Virus record (IMG/VR): IMGVR_UViG_2687453592_000007
Reading direction: 5' to 3' (one strand)
DNA length: 21,500 nt
Source of the DNA: an uncultured virus (IMG/VR IMGVR_UViG_2687453592_000007)
Taxonomy: Duplodnaviria > Heunggongvirae > Uroviricota > Caudoviricetes
Shown here: positions 3,727-21,500 of the stretch, piece after piece
Numbering within the stretch: position 1 is the first letter of the stretch
Layout of the letters: each line of letters starts with the position of its first letter
Translations under genes and position numbers: made by a program
Notes under the pieces: generated by a model
Databases searched by the model: none
What the model was told of the DNA's origin: nothing
The model's input: only the letters and a program-made list of their open reading frames with translations

Positions 3727-4671
3727 CTATGCAGTCCACACGGGCCTGTCCCGCCAGTCGGTAGGAAACCCCATATTTGATCTATCCGCGTCTGATCTCT
3801 CCTCGATCAGCTCACGCAACCGGCTACGCAAAGTGCTATCCGTGCACTGCTGATCCATGAGATGAAGAAGAACCACAAAAACATTATAAATCCGATTGTC
3901 GTTCTGCCAATTTTGACCGTCGCACACCGCAACAAGGTCGCGTTTGAACCTTTTAATTTTAGGAAGCCGCTTGACTGTTCGGCGATTCCATAATCTTCCA
4001 TGGTGCGCACAAATATTACGCACATATGATAGAACCTGCAGGGTGCCTTCGACGATCTCTTTGGTGGGCAAGCCCAAGTCATGCCCTACCTTCGACTTGA
4101 TTGAATTGTCCTTTGTTGCTTGGAACCACTTTGAAAGCTCCCCAAGCGTCATCAATTCTGTAGCTGCCCAAAGCGGCGGAGAATAGGGGCTCGTGTATTT
4201 GCCCTTGTAGTGCACTATGAAGGTCTCTTCGGACTTATCCACTGCCCGAGCAAGACGGACGAGTTGTTCTGCGTGGCTCAACCCGTTGGAAAATAGTTCG
4301 TGATCTAGATGTGCATGGGGGCCGTAGGAATGCGACATATGGTAGGTCCAACGGGACCTCACATGAACCTCGACACGTTCAATCGCCTCAAGGACGATGA
4401 CGCGCAATCTACGATCAAAGACATATAGGTCAGTTACTGAAGAAAACGCTGTGCCGATATTAAAAATTTTACTGCGCGCGTCCGCCCCTTCAGCAACCTT
4501 TTCGAATGGCAGCCAATAGGCGCTTAGCCTGTAGTACCCAACTGTCTCAAGCCATTTTTTGGCGGCGCCGTGATCATCAACACTCATGCCTCTCTTTATT
4601 AGAAGCTGAAGTTGCTCATCAATATTGGTAGGCCGCTTAGTGAACTGCAACGTCGAAAGCAGGTCCCTCAA
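3727..4671 (-). CDS. Abi family protein (AbiD/AbiF, Abi_2-like) with HEPN RNase motif; start may be TTG at 4650
   Basis: EQLQLLIKRGM, VGYYRLSAYW, LYVFDRRLR, PPLWAATELMTLGELSKWF, HEPN motif RNICAHH; visibly more AT-rich than the flanks. Confidence 0.93.
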   Translation of the reverse strand: MRDLLSTLQFTKRPTNIDEQLQLLIKRGMSVDDHGAAKKWLETVGYYRLSAYWLPFEKVAEGADARSKIFNIGTAFSSVTDLYVFDRRLRVIVLEAIERVEVHVRSRWTYHMSHSYGPHAHLDHELFSNGLSHAEQLVRLARAVDKSEETFIVHYKGKYTSPYSPPLWAATELMTLGELSKWFQATKDNSIKSKVGHDLGLPTKEIVEGTLQVLSYVRNICAHHGRLWNRRTVKRLPKIKRFKRDLVAVCDGQNWQNDNRIYNVFVVLLHLMDQQCTDSTLRSRLRELIEERSDADRSNMGFPTDWRDRPVWTA

Positions 4672-5078: not shown

Positions 5079-6188
5079 TCACGCGCCGGGGTTCTTGTAC
5101 CAGGCACGGTGATCGACGAACCCGGCCCCGAAATCGAGGCGCACCTTGAACTCGCTGGCATCGGTCTCGAAGCCGTCGCGGGTGAAGATCTGCGGCCCCG
5201 AAGCCCCGTCCAGATAGGCGTGCTGCAACGCATCGGGACGGCCCGGCAGGGCGGCGATGTACCAGGCCGCCGGGTCCGTCAGGTTGGCATCGGCCAGAAC
5301 CGTCAGCTTCTGCTGGAACGGGTTCACATCGTCGGCCGACGCGGCCGAGATTTCGGCCACCAGCCGTTCGGCCTGCGTTTCCAGCTCGGGCGGCACGATC
5401 AGAAGCGCGGGGTCCACCCGGATCGCCTCGCCCGCCAGCCCCTTCTGGCGACGCATCGCGGTGCGGGCGAGGGACAGCGAGCCGATGGAGAGGGCCGCGC
5501 CGGTCTCGGCCAGGTTGCCGTGATCGGCATGGAAGAGGGTCTTGCCATCCGACATGGCCGGACCCGCGCCGCCATTCGCCTCGAGGAGCCCGGCGAAGAT
5601 GCGCGCCTCGGTGAGCGCCGCACCCTGACCGAACAGCCGCGAGCTCTGCTCGAAAGCACGGAGGTCATCGTTCACGATGGCCTGGCGGGTCAGGGTGAAG
5701 ATCTTGCCATAGGTTTCCAGCACGAAGGCCTCGCCCGCGTCGGTGATCTGGCCTTGCCCGAACTCGCCGTTTTCCAGCACCTTCGCCAGTTCGACGCCGC
5801 CCGAGACGCGAACGGTGTTGATCGGCCGGAAATCCGGGGCCGAGACTTCGCGGGAGGCCTTCTTGATCTGCGACTCTGCGGCCTCGTAGGCCGCCAGCAG
5901 CACCTTGTTGGAGGCAATCGCCAAGGCCGTCTTGAAATCGTCGGCGCCCATCGCACCGCCCCACATCACGGCATGGCGCTGCCCCCGGAGGAAACTGCTG
6001 CCGGCCGACAGCCTCGCAAGGTCATCGAGCCGCATGTTCGCGAACTCCCGGCCGTGGGTCGGGACATGCCCGGACTGCATCCGCGCCAGAAGACCATCCG
6101 CCATCGCGTCGGCCCGAGACGGCGCTTCCTGACCGATGCCGATGGCGCAGGGGCGGATCGGCGGCTCGTTGCTGGCCATGAGCGCCAT
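5079..6188 (-). CDS. Phage major capsid protein (capsid part of a ClpP/scaffold/capsid fusion type)
   Basis: LAAYEAA, PDFRPIN, LAKVLENGEF, LETYGKIFTLTRQAIVNDDL, LFHADHGNL, LIVPPELE, KVRLDFGAGFVDHRAWYKNPGA. Frame open back to ~6280. Confidence 0.88.
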   Translation of the reverse strand: MALMASNEPPIRPCAIGIGQEAPSRADAMADGLLARMQSGHVPTHGREFANMRLDDLARLSAGSSFLRGQRHAVMWGGAMGADDFKTALAIASNKVLLAAYEAAESQIKKASREVSAPDFRPINTVRVSGGVELAKVLENGEFGQGQITDAGEAFVLETYGKIFTLTRQAIVNDDLRAFEQSSRLFGQGAALTEARIFAGLLEANGGAGPAMSDGKTLFHADHGNLAETGAALSIGSLSLARTAMRRQKGLAGEAIRVDPALLIVPPELETQAERLVAEISAASADDVNPFQQKLTVLADANLTDPAAWYIAALPGRPDALQHAYLDGASGPQIFTRDGFETDASEFKVRLDFGAGFVDHRAWYKNPGA

Positions 6189-6261
6189 GGCCTCGTTCGC
6201 GGCGACCCGGGCGATTTCCTTGGTGATCGCCGCCGCGTCGGTCTCCGGCAGAGCGAGACCC

Positions 6262-6562
6262 GCCAGGCGAGATTGGACGGCTCATGGATCATCAGATGCG
6301 CCGCGCGGTGCATGGCAATCTCGGCCGCCCCCATCACCAGGAGCGACGCGGCAGACGCCGCCACGCCCAACACTTCCACCCGGACCTGCCCGTGCCGGTC
6401 GAGCTGGGCCAGGATCGCGGCCCCGTCCGAGGCAATCCCGCCATAGGAATTGACGGCGATCACCACCGGCACGCCCGCATTGTCGTCCAGGAAGGCGCCG
6501 ATCCGGGGCGGGGTATTCTCGCCCTCGCCAATCGGCCCGTAGATATGAAGGGTTTCGGTCAT
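6262..6562 (-). pseudogene. N-terminal fragment of a ClpP-like prohead protease, out of frame with the capsid gene
   Basis: IYGPIG, INS-like VNSYGG, AASAAS (catalytic Ser), LMIHEP (His); similarity ends at NLAW and the Asp-bearing half is missing. Confidence 0.8.
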
Positions 6563-6666: not shown

Positions 6667-7220
6667 GCCGCCACCTCGATTTCCGAGATATGCCGGAGGA
6701 ACGCGGTCTGATCGCGCGGCGCCATCGCCTCGAAAGAGGCCAGCGCGAAGGCTTTCAGCTCGGCCCGGTTGGCGAGCGAGGCCCAGAACCGGGCTTCCTC
6801 CATCCCGCGCAGGAACGGGGGCATGGGCGCCCCGGCCGCGCGCAGCACTGTGGCCGCCGTCATTTCGGCCTGCTCGGGCTCCAGCGACCGCAACGCCGCA
6901 TAGGCCAGCGAGGCCCGCTCGCGCGCCGTGAGCCGCACCATGGCCAGGAGGCGGAACCAGTCCCAGCCATCGAAGGACGCATAAGTCAGCGCATGGCCGA
7001 GAACCCGCGCCATCCGCTTATGCGCGGGCTTGATGTCTTTGGAGAGAAGTTTCGAGGAACGACTGCCGTTTACAGGCGCCTCGTAAGCGTTTGTTTTTTG
7101 AGAGGTCAGACCTGGGGGGCGTTTACAGGATTTGTCCGCGTTTTCCGTGTGGTCGGAAGGATTGCAAATCCGTGTACAGGAGTTCGATTCTCCTACTCGC
7201 CTCCATTTACTTTCAAGCAC
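6663..7220 (-). CDS. Phage/satellite hypothetical protein whose 5' end runs into the att core; start uncertain
   Basis: Protein-like region KPAHKRMARVLG...ARFWASLANRAELKAFALASFEAM...EIEVAA; frame open through the att arm and core up to TAA at 7223-7221. Confidence 0.7.
   Translation of the reverse strand: MLESKWRRVGESNSCTRICNPSDHTENADKSCKRPPGLTSQKTNAYEAPVNGSRSSKLLSKDIKPAHKRMARVLGHALTYASFDGWDWFRLLAMVRLTARERASLAYAALRSLEPEQAEMTAATVLRAAGAPMPPFLRGMEEARFWASLANRAELKAFALASFEAMAPRDQTAFLRHISEIEVAA
7065..7128 (+). promoter_or_regulatory. Right att arm of element 1: CGTTTACAG repeats (7067-7075, 7120-7128) flanking an IHF-like site (7084-7096, minus strand)
   Basis: Same 9-mer as at 404-412 and 416-424; AAACAAACGCTTA has one mismatch to WATCAANNNNTTR. 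Confidence 0.7.
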
Positions 7221-7222
7221 TT
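7159..7222 (+). repeat. Second att core (tRNA-Cys 3' fragment): right end of element 1 and left end of element 2
   Basis: Identical to 310-373; no 5' tRNA half upstream. Confidence 0.95.
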
Positions 7223-7267
7223 AGCGGGTTTCCGCGCTCCAGCGCGAAGCGGTGTCTAAGCAAGCGT

Positions 7268-8317
7268 CTAAACATTCCGTTTTTGTTCTGTTCGCCTTTT
7301 CGTGGCAAGGCCCTCGCCCGTTGAGGGCTTCTTCCGGCGAGCCTGGGCCTCTATGGCGCGCACGCGCTGCCGGATCTGCTGCGTGTAGTGCGCGACCATC
7401 TTGGGGCTTTGCCCCGTGACCGCGGCCACCAGCTCGTCAGTGCATCCAGCCTCGACCAGTTCGCACGCGGCATTGTACCGCCAACTGTGGATGTCGAAGT
7501 CCAGCGCCCCGATATCTTCCCGGATCTTGCGAATGGCCTGCGATGCTCCGCGATAGGACCAGCGGCTGGTTCCGCTTTGGTTCGTCAGCATGAACAGCGA
7601 CCGGCGCGGCGCCCTGTCCAGCGCCTCCTGGAGCGAAGGCACAATGGGCACCCAAAGCCGCTTGCCGGTCTTGTTCTGTTTGACCGTGATGCCCCCATCC
7701 TGGATATCGCCCCATTGCATTTCCAGCACATCGCCGATGCGCTGGCCGGTTCCGAGGCACAGCTCCATCAGCAGGCGCTCGCGCGCCCCCAGCGGCACGG
7801 CAGCACGAAAAGCGTCGATCAGGCTTTGCGGCCATGGCAGGCGCGGATCCGCATCCGCCTTCAGCAACGACACCCCCTTGGCTGGGTTATCGGTGCGCCA
7901 GCCAAGATCGATGCTATGCTCCATCAGAATGCGGATCACCTTCACCGCGTAGTTCGCGAAATACGGTTTCCCTGCGTTCTCATCGCGCAAGCGTATCACA
8001 TCCCGACGCTGGAGGTTTGCCGGGTTCAGCGGGCCGAACCGTTCGTCGATGAACGCCGTGAACTTGTCATAGTCCAGCGCCGTGCGGGGCTTCAGGTTCC
8101 GGTAACGCGGCGACTGGTGGTAACTGCGGATAAGAGCGGAAAAGTTCCTGCGCAGAACCTTGGCCTGCCCCTCTCCTTTCAGGATAGCAGCGTATTCGGC
8201 CCAGAACTCCGGGCTGCCGAAGTCCGACCCGATCTTTTGCGACGGCCACCCACGGCGCTGAAAATACAGACCATTTCGCTGCCAGTACACATATTTAGGA
8301 AGCTCTCGCTTCGTCAT
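7268..8317 (-). CDS. int: Tyrosine recombinase / phage integrase of element 2 (~349 aa from MTKRELPKYVY)
   Basis: GTGQRIGDVL, KQNKTGK, IHSWRYNAA, AHYT; adjacent to att. Confidence 0.95.
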   Translation of the reverse strand: MTKRELPKYVYWQRNGLYFQRRGWPSQKIGSDFGSPEFWAEYAAILKGEGQAKVLRRNFSALIRSYHQSPRYRNLKPRTALDYDKFTAFIDERFGPLNPANLQRRDVIRLRDENAGKPYFANYAVKVIRILMEHSIDLGWRTDNPAKGVSLLKADADPRLPWPQSLIDAFRAAVPLGARERLLMELCLGTGQRIGDVLEMQWGDIQDGGITVKQNKTGKRLWVPIVPSLQEALDRAPRRSLFMLTNQSGTSRWSYRGASQAIRKIREDIGALDFDIHSWRYNAACELVEAGCTDELVAAVTGQSPKMVAHYTQQIRQRVRAIEAQARRKKPSTGEGLATKRRTEQKRNV

Positions 8318-8471
8318 ACCGCATATCCACCCTATCGAACTCGGAAAGGACTTCCTGCTCCGTTTCAAGCTCGAACTCGATTCGTCTTCCCTCGATCACC
8401 ACCCGTTTGACAACCCGCCCTTCGGCCTCAAGGGCCCTCAGGTAATTCAGGGCCCGCTTCTCAGCCGTCAT
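8295..8471 (-). CDS. Small int-adjacent phage protein (MTAEKRALNYL..., 58 aa)
   Basis: GGGAGG RBS; overlaps int start; same position as 1470-1682 in element 1. Confidence 0.7.
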   Translation of the reverse strand: MTAEKRALNYLRALEAEGRVVKRVVIEGRRIEFELETEQEVLSEFDRVDMRYDEARAS

Positions 8472-11013: not shown

Positions 11014-11928
11014 TCAGATCCCGACTTCGCCAAAATCCGTGCGCCCCGTTTCTGTTCGCAGGGTATCAAGGTGACGACCGCGCGCGGCCTCTATGTCGGG
11101 AACATCCGCTCCCGACCATTTGGCTAGCCGCTTTACATGCCTCCAGGAATAATCGAAGCGGATGTGGAGGATCTCACGCACGCACGCCTTTTTCGGATTG
11201 CGCTCGCGCAGGTCCACCGTGAACCCATGGCTGGTCGAGCGCGGAACTGGAAAGAACGCCGGGTTGTTCTGGCACTCAAGAACCGTCGCCAAGGAGAAAC
11301 ACCGATCAACCCCCTTCGAATGAGCCTGCTTGATGACTTCGTCAGCGGTGTATTCCATAAGCGCAAACCTATACGGCTTATCCGGAACAAACGGGTAATG
11401 GTGGTATAATCCAAGACGGTCAATAATTCTTTGCAGCCAGTCCGCTTCCTTAAGATCGTCCGAAACCTCACTCTTGAATGCGGCAAACGAAGGGCGCTCG
11501 CCCGGATAATTCTGGAACTGATCCGTGAGCGCCGAGAGCCTGTGCTGATCGCCTGTCCGGAGGGCATCAACGAGGCTGTCGAAGTCGAGTCCCCCCCGAG
11601 GTTCTAAATGGCGGTCGATCCGCTCGAGGCGGATGATCTTTTGCACTGGCTCCACAGAAGCCGCAAGCAGTGCCAGATCGTTGGTCGCTACATCGAAGGT
11701 CGATGAGTTGTGGCCCCGCGCCAGCCCCTGAACGCTATCAACGAAGTAACTGTTGACCACCTTACGGATATCTTCTGATAGCGGTTTGTAGGTCTCTACG
11801 TCGTCCCGCCGCTGCTCAGAGACGTTTTCTTCGATCAGATAATTGCAGCCGACGCAGCTTTCGTCCACGTCGGATGCCCCGGCAAGGGAAACTGCCGAAG
11901 CAGTCAGTTCGGATCGATTGAACTGCAT
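11014..11928 (-). CDS. Hypothetical protein (304 aa), first gene of a two-gene operon
   Basis: GGGGAG RBS, long ORF with globular composition; no family recognised with confidence. Confidence 0.85.
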   Translation of the reverse strand: MQFNRSELTASAVSLAGASDVDESCVGCNYLIEENVSEQRRDDVETYKPLSEDIRKVVNSYFVDSVQGLARGHNSSTFDVATNDLALLAASVEPVQKIIRLERIDRHLEPRGGLDFDSLVDALRTGDQHRLSALTDQFQNYPGERPSFAAFKSEVSDDLKEADWLQRIIDRLGLYHHYPFVPDKPYRFALMEYTADEVIKQAHSKGVDRCFSLATVLECQNNPAFFPVPRSTSHGFTVDLRERNPKKACVREILHIRFDYSWRHVKRLAKWSGADVPDIEAARGRHLDTLRTETGRTDFGEVGI

Positions 11929-12057
11929 GCCGCTCCCCGAAATACAACCCTACATAAATTGGCGCCGGTGGGCCGGCGCCTCTATCCTCTATCTATTCGA
12001 CATCCGAGCCGATGAGAAGCCCATGCAGGTCGGCGGCTCTCCAACTGCTCGCCGAAG

Positions 12058-13435
12058 GCGCATCGCGGGGCACGCGCATCGGCAGGCCGAGCGCGCCGAG
12101 GATCACGACGACGAGCTCGGCACCATCCGCGCCCGGCTGAGATCGATCGAGGCCATCCTGAAGGACCGCAAGTCGCTGATCGGCCGGCGCCTGACGCATG
12201 CCAAGAATGCGGGCAACAGCGGCCCCATCGGCAACATGATCGAGCAGGCGCAACCGGGGCTCGCCCGGGCCTATGAGGATCTCGATGCCGATCCGCTGAC
12301 CGTCAACACGCTCTCGGGCACGCTGCGCTTTTCGACGGTCGCGGCCGAGGGCATGTCGCCGGTGGCCGAGCTGCGCGTCCAGCCCGAGCATCTGCGCGGC
12401 GATCTGCTGTCGAAGATCATGCCGGTCGCCTATGACCGCGCCGCGAAAGCCCCGCGCTGGGACGCCTTCCTCGAGGAGATCCTGCCCGACGCCACCGTGC
12501 GCGACTTCGTCCAGCGCTGGATGGGGCTCTCGATGACCGGCATCAAGATGCAGCGCCTGGCCTTCTTCTATGGCGGCGGCGCCAACGGCAAATCGGTGCT
12601 GGTCGACACCATCGCCCGGGTGCTGGGGCCCTATGCGGCGACGGCCCGGATCGAGTCGCTGACCGGCACCAACCGCCGCGGCGGCGGCGATGCCACGCCC
12701 GACCTGATCCCGCTGATGGGCGCGCGCTTCGTGCGGACCTCGGAACCCGACGAGGGCCAGCGCCTGCAGGAGGGGCTGATCAAGGAACTGACCGGCGGCG
12801 AGCCCCTGATGATCCGGGCGCTGCACAGCGATTTCCTGGAGTTCTCGCCGTATTTCAAGCTGACCATGAGCGGCAACCACAAGCCCGAGATCCGCGGCAC
12901 CGATGACGGGATCTGGCGCCGGGTGCTGCTGGTGCCCTTCGATGTGCAGATCCCCGAGGACCGCCGCGACCCGGAGCTGGCCAACAAGCTCTGGGACGAG
13001 GCGCCCGGCATCCTGAACTGGCTGATCGCGGGGCTGACCGACTTCCTCGAGGGCGGCCTGCGCCCGCCCGACCGGGTGCTCGAGGCGACGGCCGAGTATC
13101 GCGAGGAAAGCGATCCGGTCGGCGCCTTCCTGACCGAAAGCGCCATCGTCACCGGCGCCGAGGCCGATTTCATCTATTCGCGCGAGCTGATCGAGGCCTT
13201 CAACTTCTGGCTGGAGGATCGCGGCGAGACCCGATGGGGCGGGCGCACCGTATCGAACCGGCTCAAGCAGAAGGCCAGCCGCTGGCGCCATCCCCATACC
13301 GGCAAGAGCTTCATCCCGGCCAAGCGCGGGGCAACCGGCTATCGCGGCCTGCGCTTCACCGACGAGTTCGCGGCCCGGATGGCAGATCGCAGAGACCATG
13401 GCGGCGCCGGTGCGCCCGTCGACGAGCCGTTCTGA
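12058..13435 (+). pseudogene. Phage/plasmid P4-family primase-helicase (D5-like SF3 helicase), N-terminally truncated; left boundary approximate
   Basis: APRWDAFLEEI, Walker A GGGANGKS, IKELTGGE, SGNHKPEIRGTDDGIWRRVLLVPF; no credible start/RBS, and codon style changes near 12050. Confidence 0.85.
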
Positions 13436-14411: not shown

Positions 14412-14624
14412 GCCCGCGATCCGGTCAACCTGCTGCTCGTCAGCGCGTCGGCGGACCGCTCGAAAGACGCGCGCGGGCCGCTCGACTGGTTGCCGCCGGA
14501 TCCGGGGCTCCGCTGCCAGTATGTCCCGCGGTTCCGGCGGATCGCCGCGAGCTACGGCTTGGTGCAGTCCGCAGCCGAGGAGCGGGAACTGGTGGCGCTG
14601 ACCGGGCGGCTGTGTGGGACATAA
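14412..14624 (+). pseudogene. C-terminal fragment of a DUF1524-type HNH endonuclease
   Basis: Hand translation: RDPVNLLLVSASADRSKDARGPLDWLPPDPGLRCQYVPRFRRIAASYGL...; no start, upstream TAA at 14394. Confidence 0.7.
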
Positions 14625-14719
14625 GAGCGGGTAGCAGATGGGGTGGATGGCTCCCGCTCCCGGCGTCGCGATGCGCCATACTGCAGGTGTCAGAATCTGC
14701 AATTGAGAGGAGCCACCCC

Positions 14720-15739
14720 ATGCAAGTTACCACTGTCGGCCTCGACCTGGCCAAGAACATCTTTCATGTCCACGGAGTTACCGAGACCGGAGAGGTCGCC
14801 TTCAATCGGCCTTTACGCCGGGCGCAGGTGCTGGCGTTCTTCGAGCGACTGCCGCCCTGCCTCATCGGCATCGAAGCCTGCGCATCGAGCCACCACTGGG
14901 GCCGTGAGCTTACGAAGCTCGGTCATACTGTCCGGCTGATGCCGCCGATGTACGTCAAACCCTACGTGAAACGGGGCAAGTCCGATGCGGTCGATGCAGA
15001 AGCCATTTGCGAGGCCGTGACGCGGCCGACGATGCGGTTTGTCGAGATCAAGTCCGAGGACCAGCAGGCGCTTCTCTCCTTGCATCGCGCACGGGACTTC
15101 GTGGTTCGACAGCGCACTCAGTTGATCAACATGCTCCGAAGCCTGGCCGCGGAGTTCGGGATCGCCATCGCTCGGGGCGTCGCGCGGGCCATCGATTTTG
15201 CGAAAGGGATCATCGAGGGCAAGCAGTCCGGGTTCCCCGAGCTCGCCCAGGACGTTCTGCGGGTCCTCAGCCGTCAGCTGGTCGAGCTCCACAACCGCTT
15301 TCGCTGGTACGAGATCACGATGCGTATCCAGGCTCGTCTCAGCCGCCAGGCGCAACTCCTGCAGAGCATTCCCGGAGTTGGGCCGGTCACCGCCTCGGCC
15401 GTGGCCGCCACGATCGGATCGGGTCACCAGTTCAAGAGTGGGCGGGAATTTGCGGCGTGGCTTGGTCTGACACCGCGCAACCACTCCAGCGGTGGCAAGG
15501 AGCGCTTAGGGAAGATCACCAAGATGGGCGATCGGTATCTGCGTCAGCTTATCGTCGTCGGCATGACATCGCGTGTGCGGCAGGTCTCCAACCATCCGGA
15601 GCGTGCCGATCCCTGGCTGACGAAGCTGCTGCAGAGGAAGCCTGCCCGGCTCGCGACCGTCGCCATGGCGAACAAGACGGCGCGGATCATGTGGGCGGTG
15701 CTGACCAGGAACGAATCCTACCGACCTCACACAGCCTGA
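14720..15739 (+). CDS. IS110-family DEDD transposase/recombinase (339 aa)
   Basis: GLDLAK, GIEAC, KSDAVDA, IPGVG, AWLGLTP..HSSGGK; GAGGAG RBS. Confidence 0.97.
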   Translation: MQVTTVGLDLAKNIFHVHGVTETGEVAFNRPLRRAQVLAFFERLPPCLIGIEACASSHHWGRELTKLGHTVRLMPPMYVKPYVKRGKSDAVDAEAICEAVTRPTMRFVEIKSEDQQALLSLHRARDFVVRQRTQLINMLRSLAAEFGIAIARGVARAIDFAKGIIEGKQSGFPELAQDVLRVLSRQLVELHNRFRWYEITMRIQARLSRQAQLLQSIPGVGPVTASAVAATIGSGHQFKSGREFAAWLGLTPRNHSSGGKERLGKITKMGDRYLRQLIVVGMTSRVRQVSNHPERADPWLTKLLQRKPARLATVAMANKTARIMWAVLTRNESYRPHTA

Positions 15740-15960
15740 GACATACCGAAACAGCGAGATAGCAAGACCGACGATGTGATGGTGTACCCTTCAGCCGCAA
15801 CGATCAGGAAGCTCCGCCGAATGTCCCGGGCGAAATTGCCCGCAAAGCAGATAGGAACCTGATCTGCGGATCCCATCAGGGCCAGCGGTGTGAACCGCGC
15901 AAACAGGCCGGACACAAGACTGCTTCTGAAAAGGTGCGCGAGATCATTTACGACTTGCTA
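15740..15960 (+). ncRNA. Bridge RNA / seekRNA-encoding non-coding region of the IS1111-group element
   Basis: Two stem-internal-loop modules whose loop sequences match the target flanks and the IS ends (see findings). Confidence 0.8.
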
Positions 15961-16026
15961 TGCGGGAGCCATCCACACAGGTCATTCGGCGCCTCAAGTC
16001 CGAGCCGCCCGTGGATCACGGAAGCG

Positions 16027-16860
16027 GATGATGTGGATGGCCCCTGCTCCCCCGGCGTCGCGATGTGCCATAGTGCAGTTGTCATCGACTGCTGAGAGAG
16101 GAGCCACCCAATGACAGTCAATACGGTCGGCCTGGATTTGGCCAAGGATGTCTTTCAGGTTCACGGGATTTCCGCGAATGGGCGCGTCATTTTCAACAAG
16201 ACGGTGAAGCGCGCCAAGCTTCTGCAATTCTTCGAGGCCCTGCCGCCCTGCGTCGTCGGGATGGAGGCGTGTGGGTCCGCCCATCACTGGGGCCGCGAAT
16301 TGGGCAAGCTCGGTCACGACGTCCGGCTGATGCCTGCGGGCTATGTGAAACCCTATGTGAAGCGGGGCAAGACCGACGCGGTCGATGCCGAGGCGATTTG
16401 CGAGGCGGTGCGCCGACCCACGATGCGCTTCGTCGAACTGAAGACGGAAGATCAGCAGGCGATCCTGGCGATCCACCGCACCCGCGATCTTGTGGTCCGG
16501 CAGCAAACCCAGATCGTGAACATGATCCGCAGCATCTTGCGCGAATTCGGCCACATCCTGCCGACCGGAGTGGGCGCCATCCTCACCTTTGCCAAACGCC
16601 ACCTCGGCGGGGACCATCCCGACATGCCGGAACTGGCCAACGGTATTCTCGGGACGCTGTGCCATCAGCTGGTGGGCCTCAACACCCGGGTCGTCGGCTA
16701 CACCAGGATGATCGAACAGCACGCCATGATGACGGCAGATGCCCGGCGGCTGATGCGCATACCCGGGATCGGTCCGATTACCGCCTCGGCCATCATCGCC
16801 ACGATCGGCGATGCGAAACAATTCCGGACCGGGCGCGATCTGGCGGCCTGGCTGGGTCTG
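16027..16860 (+). mobile_element. Related but distinct IS1111-group element, right part deleted
   Basis: Left end GATGATGTGGATGGCCCCTGC resembles copy 1; no right IR or non-coding region. Confidence 0.85.
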
Positions 16861-16884
16861 TTCCACAACAGGCCCGCACAATAG
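16111..16884 (+). pseudogene. Truncated IS110-family transposase (257 aa)
   Basis: Homologous to 14720-15739 up to AAWLGL, then diverges; lacks the SSGG catalytic serine region. Confidence 0.92.
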
Positions 16885-17118
16885 AAATTTGACGTTTCCA
16901 GCTCAAACCGGAAGTTGAATGATTCATGACATACGACAGCTCAGAGGCTCATTAAATACCCGCTTCCTCTCCGCTATTGACTGCCTCGCCATTTGCAATG
17001 AACATCACAATATAACCAACGGAGAATTTAGCCATGTGATGCTGTCGCATGCTGGAGGCTTATGTCGCGACATTTGGCAGTTTACAATTTTGGCCGCAAC
17101 GAGAACGGAGTCGTCGGG

Positions 17119-17934
17119 ATGGTTTTTCAGTTCATCGTCATCGGCGCAGCGATTGCGACCATTTGGGCGAAGAATGCATACGCAACTGACAACCTCGTTT
17201 ACAGCGATGAGAGTTTCCTGCTTGAACTGGGCTATAATCCTGGAGCTGTAGACGGATTTGCGGATCAAAACACACATAGCGCGATTTCTAGCTCTCAGAT
17301 AGGGCGTGGATCGCTTGTAACCGGTGGCATGGATACGCAGGGGCGCCGGGCACTTGGCCAGGAGATTTTAGAATTTCGTGCGAAACAGGAACAGCATCCT
17401 CCAGAAATTCCGCAAAATCTTCCGAAGGAAACCTTACCTGAAACCATTCGCAGGGAGGTCGGCCACATATGGCTGTTTAGTGATTACCGCACACTTCCAA
17501 TTGGAATGAGCGCATTTTTGGGCCCAGGTCCTGGTGGCGATTGGAGCAAGCCACATCAGTCTTTAGTGTGGTATCGGGTTTATTCTTTGGATGCCTTTCA
17601 CTCGAATGGCGTTGCGGTTCCGCAATATCTAACCGGAGAAGAAAAAAGCCATCCCTTCAATGCGAATGGGATAGGCTTGAATGGACCTTATAGCGGCCCA
17701 GCCCCTGACTTGGCAATGGTATGTGTGGTACACGCTCCACGATCCGCACCAGCCAGGTTAGTCTACAGTTTGAGCTTTTGGCGAGCGGAGCCACTACGCT
17801 TCGACCCTACAACTGGCTCGAAAAGCTACGATGCCACCATAGGGCCCGAGCTTGGCTGGGCCGTTGGCTCAGACCCTTGCCAAAATGCGTTCCAGTCTCT
17901 TGACGCTGACACCAGGGCTGCTTTGCGCCACTAG
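17119..17934 (+). CDS. Putative exported protein with a degenerate peptidoglycan-binding domain (~271 aa)
   Basis: GGAG RBS, hydrophobic N-terminus ending AYA, LLELGYNPGAVDG...T..AI...Q...VTG motif; C-terminal domain unknown. Confidence 0.7.
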   Translation: MVFQFIVIGAAIATIWAKNAYATDNLVYSDESFLLELGYNPGAVDGFADQNTHSAISSSQIGRGSLVTGGMDTQGRRALGQEILEFRAKQEQHPPEIPQNLPKETLPETIRREVGHIWLFSDYRTLPIGMSAFLGPGPGGDWSKPHQSLVWYRVYSLDAFHSNGVAVPQYLTGEEKSHPFNANGIGLNGPYSGPAPDLAMVCVVHAPRSAPARLVYSLSFWRAEPLRFDPTTGSKSYDATIGPELGWAVGSDPCQNAFQSLDADTRAALRH

Positions 17935-18185
17935 GCTGGAAATTATTTTCTTTTTTGAGTTCTGAAAATTGGCTTCGCCAAAGCACGGCTTCCGAGCCAG
18001 ATGAGAGCAGAAAGATGGCCAGAAGAAGTGCAAGCCTGAGGAAACACTCACCTAACTGCAGCGGGTAGATGTTGGGTTTCACATGGCTGGTATATTTTTG
18101 ATAAATCCCAGAAGATGGTGAATGCACTCATTCACCGCTGGTATCCGTCAGGATGTGATAGAATGGCCGCACGAATGGCGGGCAA

Positions 18186-19073
18186 TCAGGAAGATTTATT
18201 TCGCCGCTTCCCCGCAATGGACTCCAATAGCTCCGGTGAGCTGGATGCAATTTCTTTTCCGATTCGCATCAAGTATATATTTATTCGGCGGATTCTATCC
18301 CGAGGCAACAGTGTCTCAGCAAGCAAGTCACGCCCCGCCTTCCCTACAAGAACTACCGCCAATTGCGGTAGCAAGGGCATCCAGAGTTCTGATTGGGGGT
18401 TGACCAAACCATTGGACCCACCGTTCCCGAGCCGCGCGACAGCGGCGCTCGATAGGATGAACGAATGATGTCTTTCACACCGAACCCATCGGACTGATCG
18501 CTCGTGTAGTAGTTTCAAAAATTGTTCCGAAGGGCGTAACGCGGCTTGAACTCGCGCTGAACGAGAAAGTAGCTCCTGCTGGGAGGGATCTTTTATTTTC
18601 TTAAGAAAGTTGCGACCCGCAGGAGTTAGATTAAATATATCCAAGGGCAAATTTTCCACGGCATCTTGCACCATCTGGCGTGTGCGGCTGGCTTGGTCAA
18701 ACTCCGGAATGAAATCCGGCGTTCTCTTTAACATCTCGGCAATAACTTCGCGCAGAGAGTGCTCAATTTTCCCTTCAAGCGTTGGAAGTTTTCCCTTTTC
18801 AAACGCAATCTTAAGCTCAGGGAGTAGCTCTCCTAGAAAGTTATCAATGGGACCGTAGTGGTTTCGCTCCACCTCGTCTGAAGGACGACCTTCGTTGTAA
18901 ATTGTATAGTAGTTTCGGCGCTGAAAGAACGTCCTAATATTTCGGATTCTCGGGTTATCGTATTCGCCGCTGCGAGTCTTCTTCGCGTACCACAGCTGCT
19001 GTTTTCCGGAGGCAAAGGCGCGCTGCAGAGCTTGAGGTATATAATGATGGCCTTTGCTGCGTTGATTCTTCAT
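18186..19073 (-). CDS. DUF4238 domain protein (~295 aa)
   Basis: N-terminal HHYIPQALQRAF, FFQRRNYY, VERNHYGPID, FILSSAAV, LWMPLLPQLAV, RRIN motifs. Confidence 0.85.
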   Translation of the reverse strand: MKNQRSKGHHYIPQALQRAFASGKQQLWYAKKTRSGEYDNPRIRNIRTFFQRRNYYTIYNEGRPSDEVERNHYGPIDNFLGELLPELKIAFEKGKLPTLEGKIEHSLREVIAEMLKRTPDFIPEFDQASRTRQMVQDAVENLPLDIFNLTPAGRNFLKKIKDPSQQELLSRSARVQAALRPSEQFLKLLHERSVRWVRCERHHSFILSSAAVARLGNGGSNGLVNPQSELWMPLLPQLAVVLVGKAGRDLLAETLLPRDRIRRINIYLMRIGKEIASSSPELLESIAGKRRNKSS

Positions 19074-19610
19074 CAAATCTGCCGCCAAGCATATTTTCGA
19101 GTGAATTCCTGAACTCGAGATGCTCACGATTCCGGAGGAATATATACGCCCGCATGTCAAAGTAAAGTAACTATCATTTTATTCTAAGGAAATTATTGAC
19201 ATTATGAAGGCCTAGGCATCCAGTCTTGGTATCTTCGGTAACGAGTAGGCGGCTGAATTTGGCGACGCAGGTCGCTGGTGCGTTGAAGATCAGTTCTCGG
19301 AAATCTCCACCTATGCTCGGTGAGGATCTTGAAAAGTAGCTTCTTGCCCAAAGTACCAGCGTCTGCCGGGTGGCCCGGGGAGATCTCAGAGGCCTGACTC
19401 GTCCGGTTCGGGGCTGCGACCGGCAACCCGCTGCACGAGGCACGAAGGACCGGTTTGGGCCGTGAGCGACGCCGCGCGAGGGGCGATCAGGCGCTTGCCC
19501 CTGCGGCGCGGCGAAGGTCGGGAACGAGCCTATTCCGTTGAAAAACGCGACTTGTCCGAAGGTCTGACCGTTGATTCAATATCGCTGCAACCGGCTCGAA
19601 ATACCCGCTG

Positions 19611-20297
19611 ATGGCTTACCTGTTCTTCCTCAAGGACATGGACCGCTTCATGCCGATCCAACCCACCGGCTTCGACCGTGTCTTCGGTGAGATCGGCCTG
19701 GAATTCCGCACCCTGCGCAATTGTACCTGGGAGAACTACAGCCATTTCAACGGGATCCTGAACGCCCTACGCAAGCCGATCGCAGATCAGGCCAAACTGG
19801 AACACGTCCGCCTTATCGACGCCCATTCCCTGCTGTGGCCATTCTCGACCCTGTTGGGGAGGGAAGCCAAGGGCGACTTGGCCAATGGTGAAAGGGCCGA
19901 CGCGCGACACCTCGGAGCCAGGGAAAAATCGATTGCCGACATTAAGTATTCGGTGGGCAAGACGGTCTTCAACTCCAACGGCCAGGTGATCCCTTCGACC
20001 GTCAAGAACAAGGAGCTGCATATGTCCGACGCCGAGTTGGACAAGCTGATCCGGGACCTTCTCACCATCCAGGAAGACCGCTGCGCCATCACCGGCCTGC
20101 CGTTCCAGTTCCGGGGCGCACAGACGGACGACAACATGCTGCCCTCCTTGGACCGCATCGACAGCAATGGGCACTACGCCAAGGAGAACCTGCAGTTGGT
20201 CTGCCGTTTCATCAACTTCTGGAAGCAGGCATCTGATGACGGTGAGTTCCGCAGGTTGGTTGGCGTCGTTCGTGGCGATGATATGGAAGGTGGATAG
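19611..20297 (+). CDS. Protein with C-terminal HNH-like nuclease motif, probably N-terminally truncated (228 aa)
   Basis: QEDRCAITGLPF...PSLDRIDSNGHYAKENLQLVCRFINFWK; no RBS, and the frame is open only a few codons upstream. Confidence 0.75.
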   Translation: MAYLFFLKDMDRFMPIQPTGFDRVFGEIGLEFRTLRNCTWENYSHFNGILNALRKPIADQAKLEHVRLIDAHSLLWPFSTLLGREAKGDLANGERADARHLGAREKSIADIKYSVGKTVFNSNGQVIPSTVKNKELHMSDAELDKLIRDLLTIQEDRCAITGLPFQFRGAQTDDNMLPSLDRIDSNGHYAKENLQLVCRFINFWKQASDDGEFRRLVGVVRGDDMEGG

Positions 20298-20397
20298 CAC
20301 GCACCGAAACTACGGAACGAAAAATACAGATACCAGATCGGCCCATTGCCGCCGTTGGCCGATGTCTAGCAATGCTGCGGTGCGGCCCGTCAGAGGA

Positions 20398-21500
20398 GAT
20401 GGGGTGGATGGCTCCCGCTCCCGGCGTCGCGATGCGCCATACTGCAGGTGTCAGAATCTGCAATTGAGAGGAGCCACCCCATGCAAGTTACCACTGTCGG
20501 CCTCGACCTGGCCAAGAACATCTTTCATGTCCACGGAGTTACCGAGACCGGAGAGGTCGCCTTCAATCGGCCTTTACGCCGGGCGCAGGTGCTGGCGTTC
20601 TTCGAGCGACTGCCGCCCTGCCTCATCGGCATCGAAGCCTGCGCATCGAGCCACCACTGGGGCCGTGAGCTTACGAAGCTCGGTCATACTGTCCGGCTGA
20701 TGCCGCCGATGTACGTCAAACCCTACGTGAAACGGGGCAAGTCCGATGCGGTCGATGCAGAAGCCATTTGCGAGGCCGTGACGCGGCCGACGATGCGGTT
20801 TGTCGAGATCAAGTCCGAGGACCAGCAGGCGCTTCTCTCCTTGCATCGCGCACGGGACTTCGTGGTTCGACAGCGCACTCAGTTGATCAACATGCTCCGA
20901 AGCCTGGCCGCGGAGTTCGGGATCGCCATCGCTCGGGGCGTCGCGCGGGCCATCGATTTTGCGAAAGGGATCATCGAGGGCAAGCAGTCCGGGTTCCCCG
21001 AGCTCGCCCAGGACGTTCTGCGGGTCCTCAGCCGTCAGCTGGTCGAGCTCCACAACCGCTTTCGCTGGTACGAGATCACGATGCGTATCCAGGCTCGTCT
21101 CAGCCGCCAGGCGCAACTCCTGCAGAGCATTCCCGGAGTTGGGCCGGTCACCGCCTCGGCCGTGGCCGCCACGATCGGATCGGGTCACCAGTTCAAGAGT
21201 GGGCGGGAATTTGCGGCGTGGCTTGGTCTGACACCGCGCAACCACTCCAGCGGTGGCAAGGAGCGCTTAGGGAAGATCACCAAGATGGGCGATCGGTATC
21301 TGCGTCAGCTTATCGTCGTCGGCATGACATCGCGTGTGCGGCAGGTCTCCAACCATCCGGAGCGTGCCGATCCCTGGCTGACGAAGCTGCTGCAGAGGAA
21401 GCCTGCCCGGCTCGCGACCGTCGCCATGGCGAACAAGACGGCGCGGATCATGTGGGCGGTGCTGACCAGGAACGAATCCTACCGACCTCACACAGCCTGA
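20398..21500 (+). mobile_element. IS110-family (IS1111 group) copy 2; right end beyond the window
   Basis: Matches copy 1 from AGATGGGGTGGATGG onward (offset 5761). Confidence 0.95.
20481..21500 (+). CDS. IS110-family transposase, same protein as 14720-15739
   Basis: Identical translation. Confidence 0.97.
   Translation: MQVTTVGLDLAKNIFHVHGVTETGEVAFNRPLRRAQVLAFFERLPPCLIGIEACASSHHWGRELTKLGHTVRLMPPMYVKPYVKRGKSDAVDAEAICEAVTRPTMRFVEIKSEDQQALLSLHRARDFVVRQRTQLINMLRSLAAEFGIAIARGVARAIDFAKGIIEGKQSGFPELAQDVLRVLSRQLVELHNRFRWYEITMRIQARLSRQAQLLQSIPGVGPVTASAVAATIGSGHQFKSGREFAAWLGLTPRNHSSGGKERLGKITKMGDRYLRQLIVVGMTSRVRQVSNHPERADPWLTKLLQRKPARLATVAMANKTARIMWAVLTRNESYRPHTA

Follow-up and report, generated by a model that had tools for sequence, protein, structure and literature searches.

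Predicted guide loops of an IS1111-group insertion sequence correspond to its insertion sites

Introduction

Can the guides of an insertion sequence be read directly from its own DNA, and do they account for the places where the element is found? This question is raised by the non-coding tail that follows a transposase gene in the window, as the whole analysed stretch of 21,500 nucleotides is called here. In an initial annotation made from the letters alone, two modules of a bridge RNA or seekRNA had been read in this tail, the loops of the first matching the target and those of the second the ends of the element. In the passages cited here, the IS1111 group is marked by subterminal inverted repeats of 7-17 bp with short terminal extensions (PMC11208160) and by a longer non-coding region downstream of tnp and a transposase of 330-350 aa with a GL-P----S(t)G motif (PMC11187229), and its guide RNA is encoded downstream of the transposase gene (PMC11187229, PMC11208160).

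The Element and Its Family

The element, termed IS-A, is an IS1111-group member of the IS110 family with a DEDD transposase. Its parts and surroundings are as follows, a slash within a sequence marking the element boundary.

14630-14638, plus strand: left target half-site of copy 1, GGTAGCAGA, ending in the left junction trinucleotide AGA
14639-15979, plus strand: IS-A body, 1341 bp, the same in 7/7 full genomic copies
14639-14643, plus strand: left 5-nt terminal extension TGGGG, preceding the left subterminal repeat
14644-14657, plus strand: left subterminal inverted repeat TGGATGGCTCCCGC, a perfect 14-bp reverse complement of 15962-15975
14720-15739, plus strand: transposase gene, 339 aa (Pfam, NCBIfam, motif), open reading frame intact in 7/7 copies
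15962-15975, plus strand: right subterminal inverted repeat GCGGGAGCCATCCA, read directly in the sequence
15976-15979, plus strand: right terminal extension CACA, after the right subterminal repeat
15980-15982, plus strand: right junction trinucleotide of copy 1, GGT, followed by the right half-site CATTCGGC at 15983-15990
16029-16884, plus strand: IS-B, a truncated second IS1111-type element, ~72% identical to IS-A
20390-20399, plus strand: left target half-site of copy 2, TCAGAGGAGA, reading TCAGAGGAGA/TGGGG at 20390-20404
20400-21500, plus strand: copy 2 of IS-A, cut by the window end

The transposase combines the N-terminal DEDD/RuvC-like and the C-terminal IS116/IS110/IS902 domain of the IS110 family, with Pfam matches to PF01548 (E 5.6e-17, residues 6-142) and PF02371 (E 4.8e-26, residues 211-287), and its C-terminal part matches the solved ISCro4 and IS621 transposases. 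It scores 339.9 bits, at a cut-off of 140, against the equivalog NF033542 'IS110 family RNA-guided transposase', and the hallmarks of IS1111 are present, in line with the RNA-guided IS110/IS1111 family to which the initial annotation had assigned it. These hallmarks are the subterminal repeats, inset from the tips by 5 nt on the left and 4-5 nt on the right, the long non-coding part downstream of the gene (~240 nt, 15740-15979, vs 81 nt upstream, 14639-14719), the length of 339 aa and the motif GLTPRNHSSG in the translation. Insertion is furthermore site-specific and without conventional target duplication, as seen from the logo of flanks and from an empty paralogue. A literature search, which left ISfinder and the supplementary names of PMC11208160 uncompared, has returned no paper on IS-A.

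The boundaries of IS-A have been fixed on two grounds, namely because the flanks diverge just outside ...AGA/TGGGG on the left and CCACACA/NGN on the right, and because the paralogous empty site ATAGCAGACGTTCGAG (C1:3108811) equals the left plus right flank of the copy C1:1560895-1562251 with no gap. In this comparison, AGA is the only sequence shared. Copy 1 in the window reads ...GGTAGCAGA/TGGGG at 14630-14643 and CCACACA/GGTCATTCGGC at 15973-15990, and its flanks as well as the left flank of copy 2 had been given correctly before; in the genome copy 2 is complete and is followed by AGACATTCGCC.

Genomic Copies and Mobility

Seven full copies of IS-A and one without its 5' part are found in the genome. 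The full copies show no difference over 1341 nt and all their ORFs are intact; the sole variable base among them is that corresponding to 15980, G in three and A in four. Eight right and seven left ends are available, with six distinct right and five distinct left flanks, sets that are only partly independent, as four copy pairs share one exact flank and many sites lie in repeat families. Since the seven copies are identical, their ORFs intact and their flanks distinct in five left and six right cases, comparison of the copies suggests that IS-A is active.

The same copies could have been spread by segmental duplication and homologous recombination, the guides being relics of a former rather than signs of a current RNA-guided transposition. 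Such a history would be consistent with the shared exact flanks, which are the left ones of C1:26176 and 1003792 and of 31937 and 3942199, and the right ones of 27517 and 3936221 and of 38198 and 3065372 (all C1). It would also be consistent with the duplication of a 5.5-kb block containing copy 2 at 99.93%, and with four sequencing runs in which no circle junction, RNA start or RNA end has been called and no discrete RNA seen. However, each of the five left and six right flanks resembles the half-site predicted from the guides, the seven copies are identical with intact ORFs, and close relatives occupy many different guide-matching sites in other genomes, so that relic guides are considered very improbable.

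Contigs from two RNA libraries (sets X3 and X10) cover the tail and run on into a 'AGACGTTCGAT'-type flank; they could derive from DNA in the library and show neither RNA ends nor transcription. The whole element is present in run X1 (kind not given), and nothing has been recovered for IS-A from the raw poly-A RNA run X22. A simple scan has found no promoter-like or terminator-like site. When the right flank of copy C1:1002443 was searched in 40 relatives for an orthologous empty site, only paralogues of the repeat family were obtained.

Genomic Context

IS-B lies 46 nt from IS-A in the same target repeat and is cut off near 16860-16884, where low-GC DNA begins; four full copies of it occur elsewhere in the genome. 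Both elements insert into a structured ~170-nt repeat (window 14600-14638 and 15983-16060) of the form ...GGAGCGCC..GGCGCTCC CTGCCGATAGC[C/A]G[C/A]CGTTCGA ... GATCACGGAAGCGGCCGTTCATCC.... At least 22 unoccupied copies of this repeat are gathered in few clusters (C1 3-63, 2435-2486, 3059-3128 kb, and others), often just after stop codons, and the majority, with GCCGCC at the IS-A site, are unoccupied. Allowing up to 5 mismatches when searching for the target repeat gave too much noise for a census, and only members with up to 2 mismatches have been used.

The IS-B stump lies, together with ~3.5 kb of low-GC cargo, between two direct copies of IS-A (window 14639-21500; C1:3935341-3943549), and the cargo contains an ORF at 17062-17934, a DUF4238 protein at 18189-19160 (minus strand) and an ORF at 19611-20297. 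The duplicated 5.5-kb block, extending from 16008 to at least 21500, recurs at C1:3937809-3943300 beside an inverted IS-A. This bracketed cargo may reflect composite or modular movement.

Further upstream, a 67-nt direct repeat with one mismatch (310-376 and 7159-7225) looks like the 3' part of a tRNA, and ARAGORN finds no whole tRNA in the window. Each of its copies adjoins a tyrosine integrase gene on the minus strand (434-1483 and 7271-8368), and between or after them lie genes for an Abi_2 protein (3730-4671), a phage capsid plus Clp-type protease (5082-6562) and a D5_N/DUF5906 primase-like protein (11843-13432). These regions look like tandem integrative elements.

Structure of the Predicted Guide RNA

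Downstream of the transposase gene, a non-coding RNA with two stem-loop modules is predicted to be encoded at ~15756-15965, with the following parts.

15759-15768 with 15952-15961, plus strand: long-range helix closing the whole predicted RNA (MFE fold)
15802-15864, plus strand: module 1, predicted target-binding stem-loop (consensus fold and pair counts, 30 sequences)
15802-15808/15858-15864, 15813-15815/15854-15856 and 15827-15831/15838-15842, plus strand: outer stem, short stem and inner hairpin of module 1
15816-15825, plus strand: loop strand T, GCCGAATGTC, the complement of the right half-site GACATTCGGC as read on the top strand
15843-15851, plus strand: loop strand B, CAAAGCAGA, of the same sense as the left half-site, which would pair with the bottom strand
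15866-15923, plus strand: module 2, putative donor-binding stem-loop (consensus fold, pair counts, covariance model)
15866-15869/15920-15923, 15880-15883/15906-15909 and 15885-15889/15894-15898, plus strand: outer stem, inner stem and hairpin of module 2
15870-15877 and 15912-15919, plus strand: internal-loop strands of module 2, ATCCCATC and ACACAAGA

The outer stem of module 1 (GATCAGG with CCTGATC) and all four loop strands lie where the initial annotation had placed them and read as it had them, and strands T and B form the two sides of the internal loop of module 1. The fold is conserved. In a consensus built on 30 distinct tail sequences, 28 pairs have been obtained with 97.3% of cells paired, and two-sided changes have been observed in 12 of the 28 pairs vs 6.0 in shuffles, a value that none of 500 shuffles reaches. 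When the partners were slid by 1-3 columns as a control, 22-43% of cells paired. In helices 4 and 5 of module 2 no pair has changed on both sides, and their support comes from conservation alone. For the long-range helix, 7-10 of the 10 positions pair in 13 of 14 distinct sequence pairs (3/10 in L047), with compensatory changes from A-T to T-A. Searches of Rfam have given no match at gathering thresholds over the window, and none at E up to 10 over 14600-16050.

Module 2 of three relatives carries short insertions (L035:1296-1464, L056:2227-2395, L046:2279-2453), which amount to 37 nt directly after the ATCCCATC strand in the first two and to 43 nt before the ACACAAGA strand in the third. Two further matches of the RNA model have been noted in the genome: at C1:3913355-3913491 (minus strand, 97.7 bits) a diverged tail with its right end present, upstream of which BLAST has found no recognisable transposase gene, and at C1:2432677-2432820 (plus strand, 88.7 bits) a relative of IS-A, 94% identical, that is truncated within module 2.

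Loop Strands and Insertion Sites

From the loops of module 1, the left flank is predicted as AAAGCAGA and the right flank as GACATTCGGC, giving the joined target, written as AAAGCAGACATTCGGC or AAAGCAGACATTCG. The left flanks in this genome end in GTAGCAGA, ATAGCAGA (two sites), ATAACAGA and AGAGGAGA, and the right flanks begin with GTCATTCGGC, GACTTTCGCG, GACATTCGCC, GACATTCGCT, GACGTTCGAG and GACGTTCGAT. Within the window, the left flank of copy 1 matches CAAAGCAGA at 6/9 positions, a match equalled elsewhere in the tail. When the mononucleotides of the non-coding tail are shuffled, a right-flank match of at least 9/10 arises in 231 of 20000 cases, and one of at least 9/10 on the right followed by at least 6/9 on the left in 71 of 20000. 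The strong evidence for guides comes from outside the window, that is from the genomic ends, from related elements elsewhere and from the covariation of guides and flanks.

Loops and sites agree at many independent insertions. Relatives encoded at 79 loci of other genomes, mostly Roseobacteraceae, have been collected, their tails aligned and their loops tabulated against their own flanks. A logo restricted to elements with loops equal to those of IS-A has been derived from 20 distinct left flanks (A17, A10/T6, A19, G15, C19, A20, G20, A20) and 21 distinct right flanks (G21, A14/T6, C19, A12, T20, T21, C20, G18), and the resulting consensus, A(A/T)AGCAGA / G(A/T)CATTCG, is the target predicted from the loops. 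In five of those genomes, searched whole, all eight further left flanks end in AGA and four of seven further right flanks read CATTCG. The initial annotation had made its claim that the loops spell the target depend on whether other sites resemble it; in the logo they do resemble AAAGCAGACATTCGGC, and relatives with variant loops have correspondingly changed flanks. Its right guide strand, GCCGAATGTC, holds for the first eight positions and fails at positions 9-10 (GC), which are unmatched in the sites (C11 where G is predicted, then C9). The last base of strand B likewise appears not to be read. As judged from the logo, recognition would cover about 8 nt on either side, with an effective site of about AAAGCAG/ACATTCG.

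As a site finder, the exact predicted 16-mer has been rejected, no genomic site having fewer than 2 mismatches to it and only three having 2. Real IS-A sites carry 3-4 mismatches to it, mostly at unread guide positions. In genomes G041 and G042, close relatives of IS-A (L121, L126, L132, L150-L152) occupy a different repeat, ...CGGCCCTCT[G/C]C / CATTCG[A/G]GCCAGG...GCGCAGC..., from which it follows that the same guides exploit different host repeats in different genomes.

Covariation Among Relatives

Loops and sites also covary. TCCAGA is found in both guide and flank of L031 (loop CAATCCAGA, flank CTCTCCAGA) and CATTGG in both for L038-L040 (loop GACATTGGGC, flank GACATTGG..), and the loop and flank of L043 agree at 9/9 positions, both reading CGAAGCAGA. 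Three relatives are each retargeted differently, namely L062 (loops CTTTGCTGA and GCCGTTCGGC; flanks CTTTCCTGA and GCCGTTCGCT), L081 (loops GTTTGCGGA and GACAAAGCAC; flanks CTTTGCGGA and GACAAAGCGG) and L078 (left loop GTTAGTGGA, flank TTTAGTGGA), with left halves matching at 8/9 in all three and right halves at 8/10 in L062 and L081. For a permutation, flanks have been shuffled among 37 left and 38 right guide-flank pairs, identical combinations of guide and long flank within the set of collected loci being counted once. On the left 161/222 matches are observed vs a mean of 139.1 (reached in 0/20000 permutations) and on the right 208/304 vs 191.8 (reached in 5/20000), figures that overstate independence, as related elements share ancestry; the retargeted cases represent separate lineages. 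Misfits occur as well: the right halves of L073, L078 and L069 match at 3/10, 5/10 and 2/10, and the IS-B/L067 clade and Leisingera relatives carry a C three from the end of both same-sense guide strands, which in the IS-B/L067 clade conflicts with G at the left and A at the right junction of every site seen.

The reading extends to distant elements. A covariance model (R1) built from IS-A-type tail sequences aligns over its full length with the tails of two such elements, one annotated IS4321 (26.4 bits, E 1.3e-5) and one of the IS110 family on an E. coli plasmid (53.3 bits), and in both the nucleotides aligned to the four loop strands match the element's own flanks and ends. In the plasmid element, GCTTTGTT corresponds to the left flank GGCTTTGTTA, the complement TGAATAAACC to the right flank TGAATAAATC, and ATGGAAT and ATCTATG to the two ends; in the IS4321-annotated element, AAAACGGAA corresponds to the right flank TTCCGTTTT and ATAGATT to the right end.

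These data bear on the possibility that the likeness of loops and flanks is coincidental and that the transposase protein alone recognises the target. Seen from the window, with 6/9 in the left half and the joint pattern in 71 of 20000 shuffles, coincidence would have some room. Against it stand the joint variation of loops and flanks in relatives, a logo identical to the prediction, and two distant IS1111-family elements to which the reading rule also applies, which leaves coincidence scarcely credible.

Module 2 and the Ends of the Element

For module 2, the initial annotation had counted matches of 7/8 to each end. This stands for the left end, where the sole mismatch with ATCCCATC is a G-U wobble and AUCCCAUC pairs at 8/8 with G-U counted, and for the right end of the window's first copy, and it understates the genome, in which ACACAAGA matches at 8/8 in five of eight right ends. 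Ends and loops change together in IS-B (positions 4 and 5), L062, L078 and L081.

Whether module 2 guides at all may be questioned. A short seekRNA could act through module 1 only, with module 2 being structural or protein-binding and its likeness to the ends co-inherited. For ISEc11, an 82-nt RNA with the target matches alone is described as sufficient for movement, and the donor flanks had to match the target guides (passages cited from PMC11187229). Loop and ends are moreover inherited together, which makes their agreement among relatives weak evidence for donor recognition, and in the L067 clade the module 2 strands fit their own ends poorly, at 5/8 for both. On the other hand, ACACAAGA equals the right end in five of the eight genomic cases, AUCCCAUC matches the left end fully with its one G-U counted, and end changes accompany the loop changes just named. 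In the IS4321-annotated and E. coli plasmid elements, the same two loop positions again agree with the ends (7/7 in three strands, 6/7 in the fourth), and donor-binding nucleotides are reported in IS1111 bridge RNAs (Durrant et al., PMC11208160). Guidance by module 1 only is thus rated as unlikely, though worth keeping in mind.

Very probably, then, IS-A is an RNA-guided IS1111 element in which the loops of module 1 read the target and those of module 2 would read the joined ends. In module 1, GCCGAAUGUC would pair with the top strand of G-A-CATTCG and CAAAGCAG with the bottom strand of AAAGC-AG, and from the pairing of both strands the element would therefore insert at ~AAAGCAG^ACATTCG. In module 2, AUCCCAUC and ACACAAGA would pair likewise with the joined ends of the excised element (...ACACAAGA-TGGGGT...), the predicted circle junction being ...CCACACA-AGA-TGGGGTGG.... 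By analogy with published relatives, the RNA would be made, bind the transposase and direct recombination, and it is from ISEc11 and IS621 that IS-A may be called programmable.

The Core and the Junctions

A core dinucleotide GA with a tolerated mismatch had been proposed for IS-A, and the junction trinucleotides uphold its G and not its A as a shared base. Counting own copies that share a flank separately, the left junctions with data (n=34) are AGA 26, GGA 5, TGA 2 and CGA 1, and the right junctions (n=37) are GGA 11, AGA 10, GGT 8, AGC 3, TGC 2, GGG 1, AGT 1 and CGA 1, the middle G being the only invariant base. Most elements have A before it at the left junction, and at the right junction A or G precedes it; for the base that follows, target and donor each have a specification of their own. 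At the right junction, the third base follows the element's own T strand (31/38 vs 19.5 expected; 0/20000 permutations), and at the left junction it stays A, as the donor loop predicts. In seven elements with left data the last base of strand B is T instead of A and the left junction is still AGA. Empty paralogues of the target repeat carry GGA, CGA or GGT at the junction; AGA has been found there in three empty sites of this genome and in 0/12 loosely defined family members (3 clear) of two other genomes.

On these counts we lean, by a modest degree, towards a reading in which only the G would be common to donor and target, the left junction carrying the donor's trinucleotide (AGA) and the right junction the target's (GGA/GGT/AGA); this assignment draws on paralogous and not orthologous empty sites, because the element interrupts draft assemblies. 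The site reads CGAATGT-CT-GCTTTG on the opposite strand, with cleavage after CT, which is the geometry described for IS621 (PMC13626964). Somewhat short of an even chance is given to the wider proposal that natural junctions of this IS1111 clade record strand exchange, with one shared G, a left side from the donor, a right side from the target and the reciprocal product almost never seen. This would correspond to the top-strand exchange of IS621 on the opposite strand (CT-like core), with only the information of the first-exchanged strand surviving, and to an integration by single-strand transfer that is finished by replication. Single-strand transfer plus replication ('top-strand insertion') is proposed for one IS110-group element in the cited part of a 2025 preprint, and the near absence of the reciprocal product would fit it.

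Comparison with Known Systems

The transposase is related over its full length to that of elements annotated IS4321/IS5075, at 35% identity, and the RNA model of IS-A aligns end to end with the IS4321-annotated tail, whereas guides and target differ and the RNA similarity reaches only 26.4 bits. IS4321 and IS5075, of the IS1111 family, reportedly insert into the terminal repeats of the Tn21 family, a finding attributed to work by Partridge and Hall in 2003.

The IS1111 elements ISEc11, ISKpn4 and ISPa11, for which seekRNAs are described (Siddiquee et al., 2024, PMC11187229), resemble IS-A in the 339-aa transposase with the GL-P----SG motif, the long region downstream of tnp and the subterminal repeats. 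The order of the guide strands in IS-A, with the top-strand match 5' of the bottom-strand match, is likewise that published for the IS1111 family (PMC11187229, 'A seekRNA finds the target'). IS-A differs from these three in its target of ~AAAGCAG/ACATTCG and its marine Roseobacteraceae host, and in being known from sequence alone. It also has a clear second module matching the ends, in contrast to the short RNA reported as sufficient in the cited part of the seekRNA paper (PMC11187229).

In the bridge RNA of IS621 from the IS110 group, as described in the cited part of Durrant et al. (2024, PMC11208160; 8WT6 and others), there are one target loop and one donor loop. Each loop reads both DNA strands around a short shared core, as is predicted for IS-A, and the C-terminal domains of the two transposases are similar. 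Read on the opposite strand, the same-sense guide of IS-A lies 5' of the complementary guide, as in the layout of IS621. Unlike in IS621, the RNA of IS-A lies downstream and not upstream of the transposase gene, and the subterminal repeats are long; the 'core' of IS-A seems to need one invariant base, with donor and target often differing beside it.

Conclusion

IS-A is an ordinary addition to the known RNA-guided IS110/IS1111 insertion sequences and involves no new principle; the kind of system has already been described and exploited, and IS-A contributes a further member together with data on natural variation. As a worked example of annotation, it illustrates that sequence alone suffices to read the guides of an uncharacterised IS1111-type element, which can then be checked against the element's own insertion sites. 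Its Roseobacteraceae relatives constitute a natural retargeting series (AGC to TCC, CATTCG to CATTGG, CATTCG to CAAAGC), which maps the guide positions that are read to ~8 nt per side. Should the asymmetry of the junctions be confirmed, it would be relevant to the way in which these recombinases complete integration in the cell.
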